64,000 bases of DNA from Vicinamibacterales bacterium (lineage in GTDB: Bacteria > Acidobacteriota > Vicinamibacteria > Vicinamibacterales > UBA8438). Every line of letters starts with the position of its first letter. Positions within the stretch are counted from its first letter, which is position 1. This document shows, piece after piece, positions 7,987 to 60,009 of this stretch. The stretch is taken from assembly GCA_965249105.1 (NCBI GenBank), contig OZ252219.1:2455108-2519107 (forward strand), given 5' to 3'. The notes beneath the pieces were generated by a model. That model was not told the origin of the DNA. It worked only from the letters and a program-made list of their open reading frames with translations, and did not search any database. The translations under genes and the position numbers were made by a program.

Positions 7987-8151
7987 CTAGTGCAGTGGTT
8001 CAGAAATACCTCGGCATTCGGCCACCGATGCATCCCTTCTGCCTGCGTTGCTCCTCTGTCACAGATTCCCGATTTGCTCCTTCGTCGCGCCTGGCCAGAA
8101 GGGTGCTTCGGCGCCCTCGGTGCACGAGGTATTTCTGAACCACTGCACTAG
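7987..8151. mobile_element. MITE copy 1 (IS630-type ends, CTAG/TA target)
   Basis: Perfect 27-bp terminal inverted repeats CTAGTGCAGTGGTTCAGAAATACCTCG at 7987-8013 and 8125-8151. A second copy lies in opposite orientation at 21055-21219. Confidence 0.9.
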
Positions 8152-17575: not shown

Positions 17576-17824
17576 CGAGCCCAGGAGTGTTCTAGACGTG
17601 CGCTCGCCCTTCGTCAGCATCGCGCCACGAGAAGATGTTGCCGGTGACCCTCAGGCCCTCGCGTCGCCGGAGTATCGCGAGGGCTACACCGAGCACAAGG
17701 CCGACGAGGGCGCAGCAGACCGCGAGCCACCAGATCTGGGGACTCACCAGTGTGAGAAGCCCAGCCAGGGCGACCACACTCAGTCCACCGACTCCCGGAA
17801 CCGGTCCACCACTAAGGTTTATGC

Positions 17825-19273
17825 GGTAGATTCAAACGGTCGTCGCAACACCTCAACGGTGAGGAGTTGCGATGGGAACACCGAAACGTCGTCGGTCACC
17901 CCGTGCGGGACGTCTTCCGATGCGGTCGCCGGGTCGTCCCACGGCGGGACGCCGTGAGCATCGGCGTCGGTTCTGGGAGGCGATCGCCTGCGGGTTGTCC
18001 AGCGACGAGGCGGCGCTGGGGGCCGGCGTGTCCCAGCCGGTCGGAACGAGATGGTTCCGCGAAAGTGGAGGCATGCCGCCGATCAGCCTGGCCCCTCTGT
18101 CGGGGCGCTACCTGTCGTTTGCCGAGCGAGAAGAGATCGCCATCTTGCACGCCCAGCACTGCGGGGTTCGTGATATCGCTCGGCGAATCAGCCGGTCCCC
18201 GTCGACCATCTCTCGGGAGCTCCGTCGCAATGCGGCAACCCGCAGTGGCGGACTCGAGTATCGCGCGACGACCGCGCAGTGGCACGCCGACCTGAAGGCG
18301 AAAAGACCGCAGGTGGCGAAGCTCGCTGCACACGACGAACTGCGCCGGTACGTGCAAGACCGACTCGCCGGCAGGATTACGGCCGCCGACGGGACGAGGG
18401 TGCCTGGTCCCCATGTGCACTGGAACGGTCGCCGCCCCGGGCGCCGTCAAGACCGACGCTGGGCGGCGTCATGGAGTCCTGAGCAAATTGCCAACAGACT
18501 CAAGGTCGACTTCCCCGATGAGGAGTCGATGCGGATCTCCCACGAGGCCATCTACCAGGCGCTCTACGTGCAGGGACGAGGGGCACTGCGACGCGACCTG
18601 GTGGCGTGCTTGCGGACCGGCCGGGCGCTGCGCGTGCCAAGAGCACGGACACGAGGACGCGGCAAGGCGTTCGTCACTGCCGAAATCATGATCAGCAAGC
18701 GCCCCGCCGAAGCAGACGATCGGGCGGTCCCAGGACACTGGGAAGGTGACCTGATTGTCGGACTGGGGAGCTCTGCGATTGGGACCCTCGTGGAACGCAC
18801 CAGCCGATTCACGAGGCTGCTGCATCTGCCTCGCATGGATGACTATGGGCAGCCTCGGATCAAGAACGGTCCCGCCCTGGCGGGGCATGGTGCCGAGGCC
18901 GTCCGAGACGCCATCGCGTCGTCGATCATCACGCTGCCCACGCAGCTTCGCCGTTCACTGACATGGGACCAAGGCGCCGAGATGGCTCAACACGTTCAAC
19001 TCCGAATCGACACCGGTCTGCCAATCTACTTCTGCGACCCACACAGCCCCTGGCAACGCGGCACGAACGAGAACACCAACGGCCTGCTGCGGCAGTACTT
19101 TCCCAAAGGCACCGACCTGTCCAGACACTCTCGTGATGATCTTGACGCCGTTGCTGCTGCTCTCAACAGTCGCCCCCGCAAGACCCTCGGCTGGAAGACA
19201 CCCGCGGAGGCACTTGGCGATCACCTATGCTCAATCACACAACGCGGTGTTGCGACGACACCTTGAACCCAAG
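17825..19273 (+). mobile_element. IS30-family insertion sequence, copy 1 (1449 bp)
   Basis: Imperfect 27-bp IRs (GGTAGATTCAAACGGTCGTCGCAACAC / GTGTTGCGACGACACCTTGAACCCAAG). TGC target duplication at 17822-17824 and 19274-19276. Confidence 0.95.
17872..19266 (+). CDS. IS30-family transposase
   Basis: LSFAEREEI HTH, ISRELRRN, WSPEQI, HWEGDLI, TWDQGAEM, ENTNGLLRQYFPK. Confidence 0.95.
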   Translation: MGTPKRRRSPRAGRLPMRSPGRPTAGRREHRRRFWEAIACGLSSDEAALGAGVSQPVGTRWFRESGGMPPISLAPLSGRYLSFAEREEIAILHAQHCGVRDIARRISRSPSTISRELRRNAATRSGGLEYRATTAQWHADLKAKRPQVAKLAAHDELRRYVQDRLAGRITAADGTRVPGPHVHWNGRRPGRRQDRRWAASWSPEQIANRLKVDFPDEESMRISHEAIYQALYVQGRGALRRDLVACLRTGRALRVPRARTRGRGKAFVTAEIMISKRPAEADDRAVPGHWEGDLIVGLGSSAIGTLVERTSRFTRLLHLPRMDDYGQPRIKNGPALAGHGAEAVRDAIASSIITLPTQLRRSLTWDQGAEMAQHVQLRIDTGLPIYFCDPHSPWQRGTNENTNGLLRQYFPKGTDLSRHSRDDLDAVAAALNSRPRKTLGWKTPAEALGDHLCSITQRGVATTP

Positions 19274-19531: not shown

Positions 19532-19864
19532 TCATGAGCGTACTCCCTTCAGCTGAGGAATGTCGGTCCAGAGCGCAACGAGCGCCCTCTGCGTGCCCTT
19601 CACGGCGCGAAGGCCGGCGGGCGTGACCTCGAAGAACCGTTTCGCCCGGCCTCCTCGTTCCGGCGTCGGGTCGCCAGTCGACGAAGCCACGAGCCCGTTT
19701 CGCTCCAGGCGGTCCAGCGCCGCGTACACGGCTCCCAACAGGACCCGGCGCCCGCCCGTGCGCTCAATCTCCCGCCCGATGAGTACCCCGTACGCCTGAT
19801 CACCCACCCTCAGTGCGGCGAGCAGAATCATGAGCTCGAAATCGGTGAGAAGACTGCGCACCAT
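19532..19864 (-). CDS. PadR-family transcriptional regulator
   Basis: ELMILLA...AYGVLI...GAVYAALDRLERNGLV...GGRAKRFFEVT. Confidence 0.92.
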   Translation of the reverse strand: MVRSLLTDFELMILLAALRVGDQAYGVLIGREIERTGGRRVLLGAVYAALDRLERNGLVASSTGDPTPERGGRAKRFFEVTPAGLRAVKGTQRALVALWTDIPQLKGVRS

Positions 19865-19866
19865 TG

Positions 19867-19902
19867 ATTCATAAATTATGAATAAATTTCGCGTTCTGTC
19901 AA
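19867..19902 (-). promoter_or_regulatory. padR promoter with overlapping palindromic operator
   Basis: Minus strand TTGACA (19902-19897), 16 nt, then CATAAT (19880-19875). Perfect dyad ATTCATAA-A-TTATGAAT at 19867-19883, 3 nt from the start codon. Confidence 0.75.
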
Positions 19903-19903
19903 G

Positions 19904-21058
19904 CTAGTGTCCTGAGTACGAAATAGCTGTACACGAAACGCTGTACTTTGCGCTGCCCGTTTGGTACGGTAGCGCATGTTCATTCAACGGTACTGTGTCT
20001 ACGCATCGCCGACCGAGCAAGCCCAGTTGGCCCAGGTGGCTGAGCGCGGGACGACGACGCAGAAGGTGGCGCGGCGGGCGCGGATCGTGTTGATGCTGGC
20101 GCAACAGGCCTCGCCGATGGTCGTGGCCCGGACGCTGCACGTCAGTCGGATGACGGTGCGGTTGTGGGCGCGCCGGTTTGTGGCCGAGGGGGTTCCGGGC
20201 GTGCTCCGCGACGCCACGCGTCCGGGCCGACGCCCACGCTTGACCCTGACGAAGGTGCAGGCGATCGTTGACGCGACCCTGACGACGCGCCCGCCGGCCG
20301 GCACCCATTGGAGTAGTCGCGCCCTGGCGGAAGCGCAGGGCGTGAGCGACGGCACGATTCGTAAGATCTGGCGACAACACGGCCTCCAGCCCCACCGCGT
20401 GGGGCAGTTCAAGCTGTCGACCGACCCCCACTTCGTCGAGAAGCTGCGCGACGTGGTGGGGCTGTATCTGAATCCACCCGCCAAAGCGGTGGTGTTTTGC
20501 GTCGATGAGAAGAGTGGGATCCAAGCGCTGGACCGGACGCGCCCGGTGTTGCCACTGCGGCCCGGCGTCCCCGAACGCCAGACCCATGACTACGTCCGCT
20601 ACGGGACGACCACGCTGTATGCCGCACTGCGCGTGCTCGATGGCGTCGTGATCGGCGAATGCCGCCGCCGTCACCGGAGTCAGGAATTCGTGCGGTTCCT
20701 CCGGCGGCTGGAACGCGCGACGCCTCCCGATCAGCCGCTGCACCTGATTTTGGACAACCTGAGTGCCCACAAGAGTCCCCAGGTGCGGCGCTGGCTCACG
20801 CGCCATCCCCGCGTGCACTTTCACTTCGTGCCCACCAGCAGCTCCTGGCTGAATCTGGTGGAACGCTGGTTTGCGGAGATCACTCGCACGCGGCTCCGCC
20901 GGGGCACCTTCACCAGCGTGCCGGCGCTCGAGCGAGCGATCCACGACTACTTGACTCATTACAATCAGCATGCGAAGCCGTTTATCTGGACCAAGGCTGC
21001 CGACACCATCCTCGCGAAGGTCGACCGGTGTAAAGAAGCGTTAAACGCACCACACTAG
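19904..21058 (+). mobile_element. IS630-family insertion sequence
   Basis: Bounded by CTAG at both ends. Imperfect IRs (CTAGTGTCCTGAGTACGAAATAG / revcomp CTAGTGTGGTGCGTTTAACG). Contains one transposase ORF. Confidence 0.9.
19976..21058 (+). CDS. IS630-family transposase
   Basis: N-terminal HTH, HWSSRALA, VDEKSGIQAL, ILDNLSAHK, SSWLNLVERWF (DDE). Confidence 0.95.
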   Translation: MFIQRYCVYASPTEQAQLAQVAERGTTTQKVARRARIVLMLAQQASPMVVARTLHVSRMTVRLWARRFVAEGVPGVLRDATRPGRRPRLTLTKVQAIVDATLTTRPPAGTHWSSRALAEAQGVSDGTIRKIWRQHGLQPHRVGQFKLSTDPHFVEKLRDVVGLYLNPPAKAVVFCVDEKSGIQALDRTRPVLPLRPGVPERQTHDYVRYGTTTLYAALRVLDGVVIGECRRRHRSQEFVRFLRRLERATPPDQPLHLILDNLSAHKSPQVRRWLTRHPRVHFHFVPTSSSWLNLVERWFAEITRTRLRRGTFTSVPALERAIHDYLTHYNQHAKPFIWTKAADTILAKVDRCKEALNAPH

Positions 21059-21219
21059 TGCAGTGGTTCAGAAATACCTCGTGCACCGAGGGCGCCGAAG
21101 CACCCGTCTGGCCAGGCGCGACGAAGGAGCAAATCGGGAATCTGTGACTGAGGAGCAACGCAGGCAGAAGGGATGCATCGGTGGCCGAATGCCGAGGTAT
21201 TTCTGAACCACTGCACTAG
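21055..21219. mobile_element. MITE copy 2 (inverted relative to copy 1)
   Basis: Same 27-bp TIRs and same 165-bp length. Only two substitutions seen versus 7987-8151. Shares its CTAG with the IS630 right end. Confidence 0.9.
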
Positions 21220-22517
21220 AGACTGGTCACACTGACGCCACCCAACTTGGCCCCGCCCAGCGCAAGGAGAATGGGGACAAGCCGCAATCCCAACGCCCCG
21301 GAGCCTCCAATGCCGCCGGATGCCAGCAGGGCGAGCCCCACGACCATCAGGCCGCTACCGACGACCATCCTCCACGGCGCGGGGCTCGGCGCCGTGCGCT
21401 TCGACGGATGCTCGAAGCGGCTGAAGATTCCGACGAACGGGAGAAGCGCGACCGCAAAGACAGCCACCCAGGCAAGGCGCGTCCACCACCAGTCACCGGT
21501 GCCGGGCATGACCTCCAAACCGATCCCGCCCAGCCATATGGAAACGCCGAACGACAACATCATCACGGTGCTGTGCCAGAGGAAGATAGTCATGATCATC
21601 CCGTTGACCAACACCGTCGCCGTCCACAGATGCGAGCCGGCCAGCAGTGACGCCAGCCGGCGCTCGATCAGCATGATGCCTCCGAACTGAAAGGCCGCGA
21701 GGGCCACCAGCGGAAGGTGAGGCGGCTCCGTGTTGCTGACCACCTCGCCCGGCACTCCGACCAGGCTGTGGGGCCACGGGCCCACCTCGGTGAGCGCCAC
21801 CAGCGAGCCGAGACCGACGATGCACCAGAGGGACGAGCGAAGGCGGGAAGCGAATCGACCTTCAAGCCAGGCATAGCCCAGCTGGTGAACCCCAACCCAG
21901 ACGAAGAGGTAGTTGACCCACCCCGCCTCCGTCCAGTCGAGCCCGAAGTAAGCACCGTCGACGAGACCGGCCAAGAGAAACGGGACCACGATAGACCCCA
22001 TCCCCATCGACTTCCAAGCGGCGCGGGTAAATGGGACCAGCAAGATCACAAGCGCATAGACCGCCAGGAACCAGGTCGGCACGAGGGCGATCTGGGAACC
22101 GACTCGGATCATCCCGGCCGACACGCCGACGCCATGGGCCACGCCAGCGGTGACGATCCAGAACAGGACCAGCACCACCACCGGCCCGAGAAGGCGGGTC
22201 AGTCGGCTGCTCAGCCAATCCCGGTACGACGTGCCGTCCCGACAGGCCGCATCCCAGGAGATCCCGTTGGAATAACCGCCGACAAAGAAGAATATGGGCA
22301 TCACCTGCATCACCCAGGTCAGCCATTAAGCCCAAGGCGAAACATCAAGCAGGTGGTTGATGTGGGCGCCGTCCGCATCTACCCAGGGCGCGGCCATCAA
22401 CCAATGGCCCGTCACCACCACGAGGATCGAAACCGCCCTCAGGAAATCGACGCAGCGATTTCGCTTCGCCGGTGTCTTCTCCGCCAGTCTGGCGGCGGCG
22501 CTCCAGGGGGACTTCAT
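21216..22517 (-). pseudogene. Acyltransferase family 3 membrane protein with an in-frame TAA
   Basis: RNRCVDFLRAVSILVVVTGHW ... SPWA*WLTWVMQVMPIFFFVGG. The stop at 22326-22328 is in frame with 21216-22313. Confidence 0.82.
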
Positions 22518-22526
22518 CTCACCTCA

Positions 22527-25500
22527 TCATGCCATCCTGATCCACCGAACCAACGTCGCCACGTTCGGCGGCTTTCCGTGCATGAGGAGTCCAACGCGAA
22601 ACACCTTCGCGGCGAACCAGAGTGCTGCGTAGACCGCCGCGCTGGAGATGACGATCGTCAGCCATACCTGCCACAGCGGTGGTGGCGTGGCGGAGCTCAT
22701 GCGCAACAGCATTGCGAACGTGTTCACCGGCGGAACGAAACTCATCGCGGTACTGAAGGCGGAATCTGGACTCTGGTTGATCGGTCCCATCAAGAGGAAC
22801 GGAATCACCAACACAAGCATGATCGGGGTCATGAGCGACTGGGCTTCGTTCATGTCATTGACTGCAGCGCCCACGGCAGCCACGAGAGCACCATACACGA
22901 AGTAGGTCAGCACGAAGAAGATGAACAAGTACGCCACGAGGCCGACGTCGAGAAGGTCAAACATCGCGAACGACAACAGCGCCACGATCCCTAGTGCCAC
23001 GTACAAGCCGAGGACGGTGAGCCCGACGCCGAGCTGCCCAAGGATCTTGCCGGTCATCAGCTCCAGCGGCGACACGGCCGACAGCAATACTTCAACAATC
23101 CGGCTGGACTTCTCCTCAATGGTCGTCGTCAGGAGGGCTTGGCCGCTAATGACCACGGCCACAAAGAGCAGCATGCCGAACGCCATGGGAATGAGCCGAT
23201 TCAAGACCCTCGAGGTCTCACGCTCCGTGTCGACCGTGATCGCGATGGTGGGCGATGGAGACACGTCAAGCAACGCCGTGAGGACGTTCCGGTCGAGGTC
23301 GTGCGCCTCAACCCGTGCCGCGACGATCGCGTCCTCCAGACTGTCATGAATCTCATCCTCGATGCGCTCATCGAGTTGAGGTCCCACGAACAAGTCGTAG
23401 GCGCCGAAGTCGACACTCCCATCCGACAATTCGACGGCGTTCTCATGCACGACGGCCAGAGCCAATCGGCGAGTCGTGGCAGCCTCGTCCGCGAGGCGCT
23501 GCTTCTCTTGTTCGACATCGCCCGAGGTCGTGAGCTCAACCACGTCCAGGTGCGCCACCTCACCCAGCGCGTCCGTCATCGCCGACGCGACATCGGTCCC
23601 CTCAGCCACATTCCGCACGTCATCCGGGAGCTCGTCAAGGACTCGCTCCGTGGTGGCCGCGCGGTCGGGTAGACCAGGGTCGTTGCTGACCCCAGCCCCC
23701 CACAGATCCGGACATGCGGGTTCTTCCGCATCCGGCTCCTCGGCAGATGGTGTCGCTACACGCCGGTGGCGAAGTGAGCGGCCGTCATCCGCGGAAGAGG
23801 ATATCGCGCGAGAAGGCGGAGGAACCGCGTCCACGGCATTGTCCTCTGCTGCGACCGGCGGTTGAGCCACTTTTGCCAGATGTGCACGACGTGGAAGCCG
23901 AACGTCGTCAGGCTCGAGGCGTTCCCCCGAATCCCAAAGTAGGCACAATGCCCGCGCAGCTTCCACACCAACATCCGATGCTGCTTCGCGATCGATTCAT
24001 GGCGGTGCGTACAACACCAGCGATTGACGGCCGTCAGGCTCCGCCGGAGGCGGTCCTTGGCCGTCTTGCGCTTGAGCACCCAGCTGCCGTTCCGGGCGAT
24101 GCACCAGTAGTGCGTGAACCCCAGGAAGTCGAACGTGCCGGGTGGCGGGAATCTGTCACCGTTCTGCCCCGGGCGCCAACCCAAGCGCGGTCGGCGGAAC
24201 CGAACCAGACGGCTCTTCTCCGGATGCATCGTGAGCCCGACCCGCCCGAGGCGTTTCGGGAGCACCTCCAGCACCCGGTGGGCGTCAGATTCCTGCTCGA
24301 CGACGATGACCACGTCGTCCGCGTAGCGGACGAGGACGCTGCGGCCACGGAGGCATGGTTGCACCTCCGTCGTGAACCATACGTCGAGGACATAGTGGAG
24401 GTAGATGTTCGCCAACAGCGGCGACACGACCCCACCTTGCGGGGTGCCGAGGACGGAACGACGCACCTGCCCGTCCTCCAACACACCGGCTTTCAGCCAT
24501 TTGTCAATCGCGCGGCGCAGCACGCCGTCGCGTACCCGCTGGTCCAGAAAGCCGCGGAGATGTCCGTGGTCCAGGGCATCGAAGAAGCCCTGGATGTCCA
24601 GGTCAATCACCCAGCCTCCGCCCATCAGCATGGTCTGCTCCCAGAGGTGCTGCAGGGCCTGGTGAGCCGAGCGCCCAGGGCGGAAGCCGAAGCTACAGTC
24701 CCGGAAGTCCTGCTCGTAGACACTTTCCAGCACCATCACCACGGCTCGCTGCAGCACCTTGTCCTCGAACGTCGGTATCCCGATTGGTCGAGTCTTCCGG
24801 CCATCCCCTTTCGGGATGTGGACGCGGCGCACGGGAGGCGCGACATACTGGCCGGACTTGAAGCGGTCGAGCAGCGACTGGAGGTTGGCCTCCAGATTCG
24901 CTGCGTAGTCGTCCGCCGTTTGTCCGTCCAGTCCGACCGCCCCGTCTTTCCGCGTTACTACATAAGCCGCGTGAAGCATGTCCCTGTCGATGTGGTGAGC
25001 CAGGCTCGTGACCACCATATCCGATGCCTGTCTGGCCAGTTCGGCTATCCGTTGTCGTTTCAGTGAGATGGGGTCCAACCTCGGCGTGTTGGCCATCGTT
25101 CCCTCCAACGGTTCCATCTGTCGGCGCCCCCTTCCCTCCACGGGGTCTCGTGGACCCGATTCCCCCGCTTCGCCGGTACTATGAGACGCTCCGATTCCTC
25201 GCCGCCCCTCCCCCGCGCTTCGTTGCCTTCGCGCGGCGGTACCATCCGAGCACCTGCGGGTTCGCTCCGTCGGACGCCAGGTGCCACGTCCACGGCCTCG
25301 GGCTTGGTGAGCCGGTGCCCGCCCCCCGGCAACCTTTAAGATGGAGACGATGAGGCCTCCCGGGTTCCCGGGAAACCCACCCGCACGCATGCCACGCGCT
25401 CCGACCCCGGCGAGGTCGCCGCCTCCACGGCCTCTGAGATGCGGCGAGATAGCCTTCCGTCCAACGCACGACGTCGGCCCTCACAAACAATGCATTTCGG

Positions 25501-25930
25501 GGCTCAATCACGCGGCCTACGGGCTCCCTGTGAACGCTTCGCGCCCTGGGTCACCCCAGGCCCACGCATCACTCGGTTCCGGCTGGCGGCCGACCTTGGC
25601 CGGATGGGATTGGATACCCACAGGGTTTCGAACAAGGTTTCAAAGATCACATCACGGCATCTTGTCCTCCTTGACCGGGCTTTCCCGGCACACGCGCTGG
25701 AGCATGGCGTCGGGATCGAGGTAGGCGCGAACGCCCTCGGTCACAACGCCGGTAGGGTCGATCAGCGCGATCTCGCCCTCGACCCGAGGTGGGTCGTTCG
25801 TCATGAGCCGTGGAGCCACGAGGCTCATCACCAGAATCATCGCGGGCATGAGGAGCACACCCAGGAGGAACCCCTTCGTTGCCACGGTGCCGAGGTATTC
25901 CCGACCTGCCACCAGGATGACCTTTCTCAC
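22527..25930 (-). CDS. ABC-2 type transporter permease split by a group II intron (exons 25930-25694 and 23663-22527; 457 aa spliced)
   Basis: Exon 1 is 79 codons (MRKVILVAGREY...DPDAMLQR) and joins in frame to RAATTERVLDE...IEEKSSRIVEVLLSAVSPLELMTGKILG. Confidence 0.88.
23664..25693 (-). mobile_element. Group II intron (IIB-like), 2030 bp
   Basis: 5' end GTGTG at 25693. Domain V GAGCCGGATGCGG...CCGCATGTCCGGATC (23738-23705). Domain VI ends CTACCCGAC with the bulged-A spacing and AY terminus at 23664. Confidence 0.93.
23756..25096 (-). CDS. Group II intron reverse transcriptase/maturase without an endonuclease domain
   Basis: GLDG, RRVHIPK, RPIGIPTFEDKVLQ, SFGFRPGRS, GTPQGGVVSPLLANIYL, RYADD, FDFLGF. 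GGAGG RBS before ATG 25096. Ends after domain X with no HNH. Confidence 0.95.
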   Translation of the reverse strand: MANTPRLDPISLKRQRIAELARQASDMVVTSLAHHIDRDMLHAAYVVTRKDGAVGLDGQTADDYAANLEANLQSLLDRFKSGQYVAPPVRRVHIPKGDGRKTRPIGIPTFEDKVLQRAVVMVLESVYEQDFRDCSFGFRPGRSAHQALQHLWEQTMLMGGGWVIDLDIQGFFDALDHGHLRGFLDQRVRDGVLRRAIDKWLKAGVLEDGQVRRSVLGTPQGGVVSPLLANIYLHYVLDVWFTTEVQPCLRGRSVLVRYADDVVIVVEQESDAHRVLEVLPKRLGRVGLTMHPEKSRLVRFRRPRLGWRPGQNGDRFPPPGTFDFLGFTHYWCIARNGSWVLKRKTAKDRLRRSLTAVNRWCCTHRHESIAKQHRMLVWKLRGHCAYFGIRGNASSLTTFGFHVVHIWQKWLNRRSQQRTMPWTRFLRLLARYPLPRMTAAHFATGV

Positions 25931-58409: not shown

Positions 58410-58560
58410 CATGGAGACGAGCCAACTAGTGGCCGCGGTCCTGATGATGGTGTCGCCAGCGTTGTTCGCCCTGAGCTATCAGCTCTACCACCCAATCCGG
58501 ACCCTTGATGTAGAGGACTCCAAGACACGAGGACTCCACATTGCGTTGTGGAGCATCACC

Positions 58561-60009
58561 GGTAGATTCAAACGGTCGTCGCAACACCTCAACGGTGAGG
58601 AGTTGCGATGGGAACACCGAAACGTCGTCGGTCACCCCGTGCGGGACGTCTTCCGATGCGGTCGCCGGGTCGTCCCACGGCGGGACGCCGTGAGCATCGG
58701 CGTCGGTTCTGGGAGGCGATCGCCTGCGGGTTGTCCAGCGAAGAGGCGGCGCTGGGGGCCGGCGTGTCCCAGCCGGTCGGAACGAGATGGTTCCGCGAAA
58801 GTGGAGGCATGCCGCCGATCAGCCTGGCCCCTCTGTCGGGGCGCTACCTGTCGTTTGCCGAACGAGACGAGATCGCCATCTTGCACGCCCAGCACTGCGG
58901 GGTTCGTGATATCGCTCGGCGAATCAGCCGGTCCCCGTCGACCATCTCTCGGGAGCTCCGTCGCAATGCGGCAACCCGCAGTGGCGGACTCGAGTATCGC
59001 GCGACGACCGCGCAGTGGCACGCCGACCTGAAGGCGAAAAGACCGCAGGTGGCGAAGCTCGCTGCACACGACGAACTGCGCCGGTACGTGCAAGACCGAC
59101 TCGCCGGCAGGATTACGGCCGCCGACGGGACGAGGGTGCCTGGTCCCCATGTGCACTGGAACGGTCGCCGCCACGGGCGCCGTCAAGACCGACGCTGGGC
59201 GGCGTCATGGAGTCCTGAGCAAATTGCCAACAGACTCAAGGTCGACTTCCCCGATGAGGAGTCGATGCGGATCTCCCACGAGGCCATCTACCAGGCGCTC
59301 TACGTGCAGGGACGAGGGGCACTGCGACGCGACCTGGTGGCGTGCTTGCGGACCGGCCGGGCGCTGCGCGTGCCAAGAGCACGGACACGAGGACGCGGCA
59401 AGGCGTTCGTCACTGCCGAAATCATGATCAGCAAGCGCCCCGCCGAAGCAGACGATCGGGCGGTCCCAGGACACTGGGAAGGTGACCTGATTGTCGGACT
59501 GGGGAGCTCTGCGATTGGGACCCTCGTGGAACGCACCAGCCGATTCACGAGGCTGCTGCATCTGCCTCGCATGGATGACTATGGGCAGCCTCGGATCAAG
59601 AACGGTCCCGCCCTGGCGGGGCATGGTGCCGAGGCCGTCCGAGACGCCATCGCGTCGTCGATCATCACGCTGCCCACGCAGCTTCGCCGTTCACTGACAT
59701 GGGACCAAGGCGCCGAGATGGCTCAACACGTTCAACTCCGAATCGACACCGGTCTGCCAATCTACTTCTGCGACCCACACAGCCCCTGGCAACGCGGCAC
59801 GAACGAGAACACCAACGGCCTGCTGCGGCAGTACTTTCCCAAAGGCACCGACCTGTCCAGACACTCTCGTGATGATCTTGACGCCGTTGCTGCTGCTCTC
59901 AACAGTCGCCCCCGCAAGACCCTCGGCTGGAAGACACCCGCGGAGGCACTTGGCGATCACCTATGCTCAATCACACAACGCGGTGTTGCGACGACACCTT
60001 GAACCCAAG
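58561..60009 (+). mobile_element. IS30-family insertion sequence, copy 2 (1449 bp)
   Basis: Same IRs as copy 1. ACC target duplication at 58558-58560 and 60010-60012. At least four substitutions versus copy 1. Confidence 0.95.
58608..60002 (+). CDS. IS30-family transposase
   Basis: 464 aa, differing from 17872-19266 at only a few residues. Confidence 0.95.
   Translation: MGTPKRRRSPRAGRLPMRSPGRPTAGRREHRRRFWEAIACGLSSEEAALGAGVSQPVGTRWFRESGGMPPISLAPLSGRYLSFAERDEIAILHAQHCGVRDIARRISRSPSTISRELRRNAATRSGGLEYRATTAQWHADLKAKRPQVAKLAAHDELRRYVQDRLAGRITAADGTRVPGPHVHWNGRRHGRRQDRRWAASWSPEQIANRLKVDFPDEESMRISHEAIYQALYVQGRGALRRDLVACLRTGRALRVPRARTRGRGKAFVTAEIMISKRPAEADDRAVPGHWEGDLIVGLGSSAIGTLVERTSRFTRLLHLPRMDDYGQPRIKNGPALAGHGAEAVRDAIASSIITLPTQLRRSLTWDQGAEMAQHVQLRIDTGLPIYFCDPHSPWQRGTNENTNGLLRQYFPKGTDLSRHSRDDLDAVAAALNSRPRKTLGWKTPAEALGDHLCSITQRGVATTP

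Follow-up and report, generated by a model that had tools for sequence, protein, structure and literature searches.

In the 64,000-nucleotide stretch of DNA analysed here (the window), an IS630-family insertion sequence (IS) and a non-coding MITE stand next to each other with a single TA between them. The sequence from 19700 to 21500 reads C-TA-[IS, 19907-21055]-TA-[MITE, 21058-21216]-TA-G, with a left flank of ...TGTCAAG-C-TA, a right flank that continues as G-AGACTGG after the final TA, and CTAG occurring three times in the stack, at 19904-19907, 21055-21058 and 21216-21219. This arrangement had been proposed in a preliminary description of the locus, every coordinate of which is right, as is its statement that both elements start with G and end with C and thereby recreate CTAG on each side, a property found here and in all copies examined. 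Around the middle TA, at the joint between the two elements, the sequence forms the 8-bp palindrome CACTAGTG. The stack sits between two genes of an uncultured sponge-associated bacterium, in DNA of 64% G+C (Table 1).

The acyltransferase gene to the right of the stack reaches further upstream than its ORF, to 22517, but its frame is broken by a TAA codon at 22326-22328. In other strains, and in roughly half of the depth in the source sample, base 22328 is G and the codon reads CAA. On the other side, the -35 box of the promoter-like site for the PadR gene starts 1 nt from CTAG, and this is the only sigma-70-like site in 2 kb (mean of 0.1 in shuffles).

Table 1. Features of the stacked locus and of the second MITE copy in the window
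Feature	Coordinates	Strand	Details
Second, solo MITE copy	7990..8148	opposite orientation	2 differences in 159 bases; in its own unrelated CTAG between convergent ORFs
PadR-family regulator gene, downstream of stack	19532..19864	-	Pfam PadR, E = 4.8e-10
Promoter-like site for PadR gene	19875..19902	-	TTGACA-16-CATAAT; 11/12 matches
Left junction CTAG	19904..19907		Host C, duplicated TA 19905-19906, IS first base G; from the sequence
IS630-family insertion sequence	19907..21055	+	1149 bp, one ORF; ends fixed by L006; NCBIfam, Pfam
Left inverted repeat of IS	19907..19934	+	GTGTCCTGAGTACGAAATAGCTGTACAC; copy comparison
Transposase gene	19976..21058	+	360 aa; stop TAG 21056-21058 = duplicated TA + MITE first base
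Right inverted repeat of IS	21028..21055	-	GTGTGGTGCGTTTAACGCTTCTTTACAC, read inward; also encodes last residues of transposase
Middle TA common to IS and MITE	21056..21057		From the sequence
MITE	21058..21216	.	159 bp, non-coding; perfect 24-bp terminal inverted repeats 21058-21081 and 21193-21216
Right junction CTAG	21216..21219		MITE last base C, duplicated TA 21217-21218, host G; from the sequence
Acyl_transf_3 ORF	21216..22313	-	Pfam; stop = reverse complement of CTA at 21216-21218

The insertion sequence and its relatives

The 1149-bp element is an intact insertion sequence of the IS630 family, with the size (∼1.1-1.2 kb), the one ORF and the terminal inverted repeats of that family; it begins GTGTCCTGAGTACGAAATAG at 19907 and finishes ...GCACCACAC at 21055. 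Its transposase, of the IS630/Tc1-mariner DDE type, scores 274.6 bits against the NCBIfam IS630 equivalog NF033545 (cut-off 100), contains the Pfam domain DDE_3 together with the N-terminal helix-turn-helix domains HTH_23, HTH_32 and HTH_29, and by motif inspection has D177, D260 and E296 as candidate catalytic residues. An exact protein look-up returned no identical protein on record and a sequence search of PDB found nothing; among the 120 best homologues, those of roughly full length (356-361 aa) have their C-terminus at the equivalent position.

To compare element boundaries we used 15 IS copies, namely the window copy, a 96% identical copy in a different flank on a 1-Mb ENA contig (L006), the copy in L021, ten copies of a sister IS with 82% protein identity (L011-L020) and, at 67%, those in L029 and L030, which come from soil and another run. 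Similarity between the window copy and L006, which is likewise flanked by CTAG on both sides, stops exactly at C-TA/G...C/TA-G. All 15 copies have C-TA...TA-G flanks, with G as the first base of the element and C as the last. The IS itself lacks a stop codon: its frame reaches the last base of the element, and in 15/15 copies the transposase TAG is formed by the TA and G of the right junction. The earlier reading of the stop at 21056-21058 as supplied by the junction is correct, the stop being made up of the middle TA and the first G of the MITE. A relative of 99% identity (L007) was set aside as uninformative, being an IS fragment that lacks both ends on a 2x contig. Solo copies of the IS are seen in L006 and L011-L021.

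The two ends of the IS are related but imperfect repeats, which match each other at 11-13 of 23 positions. Their outer 11 bases agree at 8/11 in the window copy, 10/11 in L006 and 11/11 in the sister IS, and a second block, CTnTACAC, is common to both ends at positions 21-28. The first 11 nt of the left end also occur in L021, in an IS on an Acidovorax plasmid (L031) and in one MITE described below (MITE-B of L027). The intact ORF and ends, an estimated ∼45 copy-equivalents in the source sample and the existence of occupied versus empty alleles are the only, indirect signs of cut-and-paste activity.

A family of MITEs at CTAG sites

The 159-bp element is a MITE: it is short and non-coding, has terminal inverted repeats and TA flanks, and occurs in many dispersed copies. 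Its terminal repeat is GTGCAGTGGTTCAGAAATACCTCG at 21058, and the exact reverse complement closes the element at 21216. The predicted fold is one long hairpin (-94.9 kcal/mol, z = -9.95), Rfam holds no match to the element, and the ORFs that overlap it are read-through artefacts. The two window copies lie within a 188-nt repeat that reaches past the MITE ends, which reflects the extension tolerance used, since the flanks beyond the ends match at only 12/23 positions. In the source sample the MITE left-end words have a depth of 255 against 11 for the unique flank, although these are metagenome words and may mix organisms; the IS and the MITE thus each amount to tens of copy-equivalents, which may be distributed among several organisms, and at least 8 different MITE left flanks were found there.

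Relatives of the MITE were recovered by a protein database search with the MITE reading frames, and then from ORFs running into MITEs; with the concatenated reading frames as query, this route returned relatives and no transposase. Six other assemblies hold relatives, and members of 157-160 bp are present in L022/L023, L026, L027 and L028. Those of L022/L023, L026 and L028 are 159-bp copies at 81% identity, the L026 and L028 copies being identical to that of L023 in different flanks, and L024/L025 carries a 96% copy that is truncated at its right end. Two further members of the family, MITE-A and MITE-B, lie in L027, where they form a second stack, C-TA-[MITE-A]-TA-[MITE-B]-TC-G, with a common TA between the two. 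Exact scans of genome and metagenome collections with the 19-base MITE end gave single chance matches only, so that the MITE is absent from the collections scanned. CTAG is the site at 7/7 fully read MITE insertions, and roughly three in four MITE left flanks in Logan contigs start at the C. Even in MITE flanks without the C or the TA the element keeps G at its first position, and the G and C therefore belong to the element. The preliminary description had asked for other stacks and for solo copies in the genome, and both exist: the MITE-MITE stack of L027, the solo MITE at 7990-8148 and the solo IS copies in L006 and L011-L021 leave its account of the stack unrefuted.

Insertion history and the relationship of the two elements

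The boundaries of the IS and the MITE are real, having been established by three independent checks: the L006 copy, the copy at 7990-8148 and an empty site. The last of these is an unoccupied allele with one CTAG, ...TGTCAAG-CTAG-AGACTGG, in Logan contigs of run X16, one of which joins 19887 to 21216 via GCGCGTTCTGTCAAG. The X16 allele belongs to a related strain from a different host organism. Because it shows one CTAG, both elements appear to have entered a single site, with TA duplicated each time; for the IS, the 2-bp TA duplication is seen both at this empty site and in the TA on either side of 15/15 copies. The allele also bears on the acyltransferase stop. The preliminary description had correctly placed this stop at a junction CTAG, but its suggestion that the stop came from the insertions does not hold: the TAG was already part of the target CTAG and has been preserved, not created. 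An allele with only the IS or only the MITE at the stack site was not seen in eight runs, so the two-step history is inferred, not observed.

We consider it very probable that the stack arose by two separate cut-and-paste insertions of IS630-type elements into one CTAG, the cut-and-paste chemistry of the IS being presumed from its family membership. The target was at once the TAG stop of the acyltransferase and the neighbour of the -35 box of the PadR promoter. At each insertion the central TA is duplicated, and the G...C ends make every junction read CTAG again, such that the first insertion would leave two usable CTAG targets and the second element would land in one of them. The reading frame of the IS is closed by the TA and whichever G comes next, supplied at this locus by the MITE in place of host DNA. 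For the mirror-image reason the host acyltransferase stop is kept, thanks to the TA duplication and the C at the end of the MITE.

A relationship between the MITE and the IS clade is indicated by their ends. The MITE end matches the left end of the window IS at 14/23 positions, a count given in the preliminary description and confirmed on recount, and that of L006 at 15/23, against 11-13/23 between the two ends of the IS itself; when GTG was held constant and positions 4-23 were shuffled, 1075 of 200000 shuffles did as well (p ∼0.005). MITE subfamilies differ in their ends, and the match is closest in MITE-B of L027, which aligns end to end with the MITE family and whose left end, GTGTCCTGAGTTCGATATACCTGTATAC, agrees with the left end of the window IS at 24/28 positions, the first 11 being identical. 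Judged by these alignments, the MITE family and the IS clade have homologous ends, which upholds the earlier proposal that the two are related there. The interior of the MITE has no similarity to the window IS, and the MITE is accordingly not a simple deletion derivative of it.

Because the ends are homologous, mobilisation of the MITE by transposases of this clade is likely, and mobilisation in trans by an IS-clade transposase is a plausible reading of the sequences. In ISY100 of Synechocystis, the biochemical model of the family, transposition is cut-and-paste with TA duplication, the transposase binds 24-bp terminal repeats, and transposition probably needs no more in cis than these 24-bp inverted repeats (PMC2170065); trans-mobilisation of a MITE is plausible for this reason. 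The MITE would then be a non-autonomous relative with ends homologous to the left end of the IS clade, and the transposase that moves it would most likely come from that clade, though not necessarily from the window copy. Neither the collection scans nor the IS copies read contained a transposase-bearing element with the exact ends of the MITE (GTGCAGTGGTTCAG...). The copies in L029 and L030, to which transposase C-termini of the ...NARH group had pointed, were considered as a possible partner and rejected, their ends (GTGTCGTGCGT) differing from those of the MITE.

The preliminary description had also raised the possibility that the two elements move as a composite unit, in which case the left end of the IS and the outer end of the MITE would serve as the transposon ends. 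The pair, taken together, is flanked by C-TA...TA-G, and its outer ends are partly alike (14/23), but the joint (21033-21081) is single-copy: its contig depth in the source-sample libraries is 13.2 (X2), 15.5 (X1) and 34.9 (X3), the level of unique DNA. In the source sample, a joint depth of 13.2 compares with 11 in unique flanking DNA, whereas words of the IS end reach ∼513 and those of the MITE end 255. The depth of the repeat words to the left and right thus exceeds that of the joint 20- to 45-fold, copy numbers here being estimates from metagenome word depth in which several organisms may be mixed. None of the other runs examined contains the joint, and the IS and the MITE each occur alone elsewhere. 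The composite unit is on this evidence very improbable. A second reading would separate the two elements altogether, making the MITE a member of the IS5 family with ends TGCAG...CTGCA and a 4-bp CTAG duplication, unrelated to the neighbouring IS630 element. CTAG on both sides of every complete copy fits a 4-bp duplication equally well, and IS5-related MITEs such as MITEPsy1 do insert at CTAG or YTAA with duplication, of the 4-bp CTAG in the former case (PMC3189936). However, the G at the first position is kept in copies whose flank is without the C or TA, the ends share homology with the left end of an IS630-clade element (24/28 in MITE-B), and no IS5-type partner is indicated; we therefore hold the IS5 assignment to be highly improbable, and treat the MITE as an IS630-type element that entered the site independently of the IS.

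A further question is whether the stack marks an accumulating hotspot, as had been suggested earlier. The premise stands, in that every insertion leaves two CTAGs, but an excess of stacks is not seen: a stacked element is present at 1/26 IS junctions, and ∼1.4 stacks per genome would be expected by chance if genome size and copy number are as we assumed (∼65 element copies and ∼3000 CTAG sites). In its strong form the idea is that junction CTAGs are truly preferred, stacks then growing faster than chance, and the CACTAGTG joint would be the best site of all. In favour of this, T stands beside CTAG at 19/38 insertion half-sites versus 23/98 at those CTAGs of the window that carry no insertion (Fisher p = 0.004), and TG at 8/38 versus 7/98 (p = 0.03), which amounts to a modest extended target preference around CTAG, the background sites coming from one genome and the insertion sites from several; the element ends GTG...CAC reproduce this preferred context, CA-CTAG-TG. 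A MITE-TA-MITE stack is present in L027 as well, and loose ends suggest short element relics beside other MITE copies. Against it stand the single stacked junction among 26, the fact that two stacks in ∼23 elements are not clearly above a random expectation of ∼2% per site, the ∼1.4 stacks per genome expected by chance at 65 copies and 3000 sites, and the mismatch between a background from one genome and insertions from several. On balance we think a true preference for junction CTAGs doubtful, and keep to two insertions in one CTAG as the account of the stack.

A related and equally speculative idea, which we consider improbable, is that the GTG...CAC ends of this IS630 clade may have evolved into a copy of the preferred extended target, producing self-propagating arrays, while insertion exactly at a host C-TAG stop would be scarless. 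If so, each insertion would create a landing site superior to its own target, and the window stack, the L027 stack and the possible short relics would be examples; in the same way TA plus the G of the element would rebuild the host stop, as at the acyltransferase in the window, a lipase in L021 and an antiporter in L024, and stop codons would be safe harbours in CTAG-poor, G+C-rich genomes. CTAG is rare in the window, with 54 sites in 64 kb versus 213 expected from base composition. Insertions at the stop codons of long open frames are not enriched (7/15, versus 24/49 for background CTAGs).

Comparison with described IS630-type elements

Much of what is seen at this locus has precedents. For IS630 of Shigella sonnei, described by Tenzen et al. 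1990 and Tenzen and Ohtsubo 1991 (cited in PMC2170065 and PMC2577343), a TA duplication and a preference for CTAG targets are tabulated from the latter work in Table 1 of PMC2577343. The window IS resembles it in both respects and in having a single DDE transposase with an N-terminal helix-turn-helix, and differs from it in that the proteins are only distantly related and the window ORF reaches the very end of the element. The architecture is also that of IS870 of Agrobacterium vitis, an IS630-family element (Fournier, Paulus and Otten 1993, cited in PMC13630536 and PMC6471742): according to PMC13630536, IS870 and ISMt1 insert in CTAG and take a stop codon from the target. The window IS likewise uses 5'-CTAG-3' and takes the stop of its long ORF from the target TAG, and by this CTAG target and borrowed stop, found in 15/15 copies, it is IS870-like, the likeness being one of architecture as described. 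The hosts are different, IS870 residing in Agrobacterium vitis and the window IS in an uncultured bacterium associated with a sponge. ISY100 is less similar in target choice, since it uses TA in general and is not restricted to CTAG; it is known biochemically, whereas the window element is known from sequence.

The self-regenerating CTAG and the borrowed stop are therefore traits of a broad subgroup that was already described for IS630 and IS870 in 1990-93, and the locus leaves knowledge of transposition unchanged. New here are this IS/MITE family, which is abundant in bacteria associated with sponges, two natural stacks and a MITE subfamily (MITE-B of L027) whose end links the MITEs to the IS. 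The locus also offers a clean natural example in which TA duplication, choice of CTAG, a borrowed stop and a MITE on the same machinery can be read against a matching empty allele. Any wider interest would lie in whether junction CTAGs and TAG stop codons are preferred, or simply harmless, landing sites.

The nearest proteins among annotated plasmids, at ∼53-54% identity, extend these comparisons beyond the close relatives of the window IS. In the ISAzs31 family of Azospirillum sp. B510 (L032) the CTAG site and the G...C ends are as in the window IS, but the stop lies 11 nt inside the element. In contrast, the IS on plasmid pACNA2.1 of Acidovorax carolinensis (L031) shares with the window IS the CTAG site, the G...C ends, the first 11 bases (GTGTCCTGAGT) and the stop formed at the junction.

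Stop codons and genes as insertion sites

In two of the loci outside the window, the CTAG used by the inserted element doubles as the TAG stop of a called gene, a GDSL lipase in the IS-bearing locus L021 (1429-1432) and a proton antiporter subunit in the MITE-bearing locus L024 (2493-2496). In both, TA and the G of the inserted IS or MITE restore the host stop, as at the acyltransferase gene in the window. The elements are not confined to harmless sites, since a Pkinase-PD40 gene is disrupted by the MITE in L022/L023 (3612-3770) and by the IS in L018, and element copies disrupt a DUF5916 gene in L013 and a PepSY_TM gene in L028. Within the window, the same hexamer, TGCCAC, directly follows three otherwise unrelated CTAG sites (7300, 22991 and 41467).

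A second natural stack and flanking sequences of other copies

A second stack occurs in L027 (2371-2689; ENA ERZ26167216), a contig at 2x coverage, where two MITEs of the same family have one TA in common, and where the pair is bounded by C-TA at one end and TC-G at the opposite end. Of these two MITEs, the second carries an IS-type end, GTGTCCTGAGT, and its far end is degenerate.

The left flanks of other MITE copies were read from Logan contigs (runs X29 and X1/X2/X4), solely as 30-base loose ends. One such flank reads CTAG-TGCA-CTAG-MITE, in which the 6 bp between the two TAs, GTGCAC, correspond to the first three plus the last three bases of an element; this arrangement resembles the footprint left by Tc1/mariner excision. 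In another flank the sequence is CTC-GTGTGGTGACCACAC-TAG-MITE, the middle segment being a 15-bp palindrome composed of both IS tips. In L016, an IS copy has a MITE-like remnant (approximately 1181-1339) some 90 nt from its left end; the remnant is degenerate, with 78% identity over 59 nt.

Allelic and strain variation around the window stack

The acyltransferase gene (21216-22517, minus strand) is interrupted after codon 63 by an in-frame TAA at 22326-22328, and is probably inactive in the window strain. This nonsense allele is polymorphic, as three other runs, and roughly half of the depth in the source sample, have G at position 22328, which makes the codon CAA (Gln).

Window positions 19833-19903 were compared with related strains represented by runs X25, X27, X11, X17 and X30. 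In several related strains likeness to the window breaks off sharply at 19832, inside the first PadR codons, and again at ∼21227-21249, indicating that the PadR start, the PadR promoter and the acyltransferase 3′ end lie at a spot that varies, or is rearranged, from strain to strain. The promoter's -10 box overlaps with TTCATAA-A-TTATGAA (19868-19882), a perfect 7-1-7 palindrome and a plausible candidate operator for PadR autoregulation.

Other mobile elements in the window

The two IS30-like copies, each of 1450 bp, are 99.7% identical and lie in the same direction. The ∼39 kb between them includes the IS630/MITE locus, and the arrangement could be a composite transposon or no more than two insertions.

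Mobile elements in the window other than the IS630/MITE stack
Feature	Window position	Orientation	Identification
IS30-like element, copy 1	17824-19273	direct copies	HTH_38 + rve transposase
IS30-like element, copy 2	58560-60009	direct copies	HTH_38 + rve transposase
Group II intron	23664-25613	minus strand	Rfam domain matches + reverse-transcriptase ORF

In the group II intron, domains D1-D4 (138.7 bits in Rfam) and D5-D6 (46.7 bits) flank the reverse-transcriptase ORF (23756-25390), and the intron adjoins, or sits within, the 5′ part of an ABC-2 transporter ORF.
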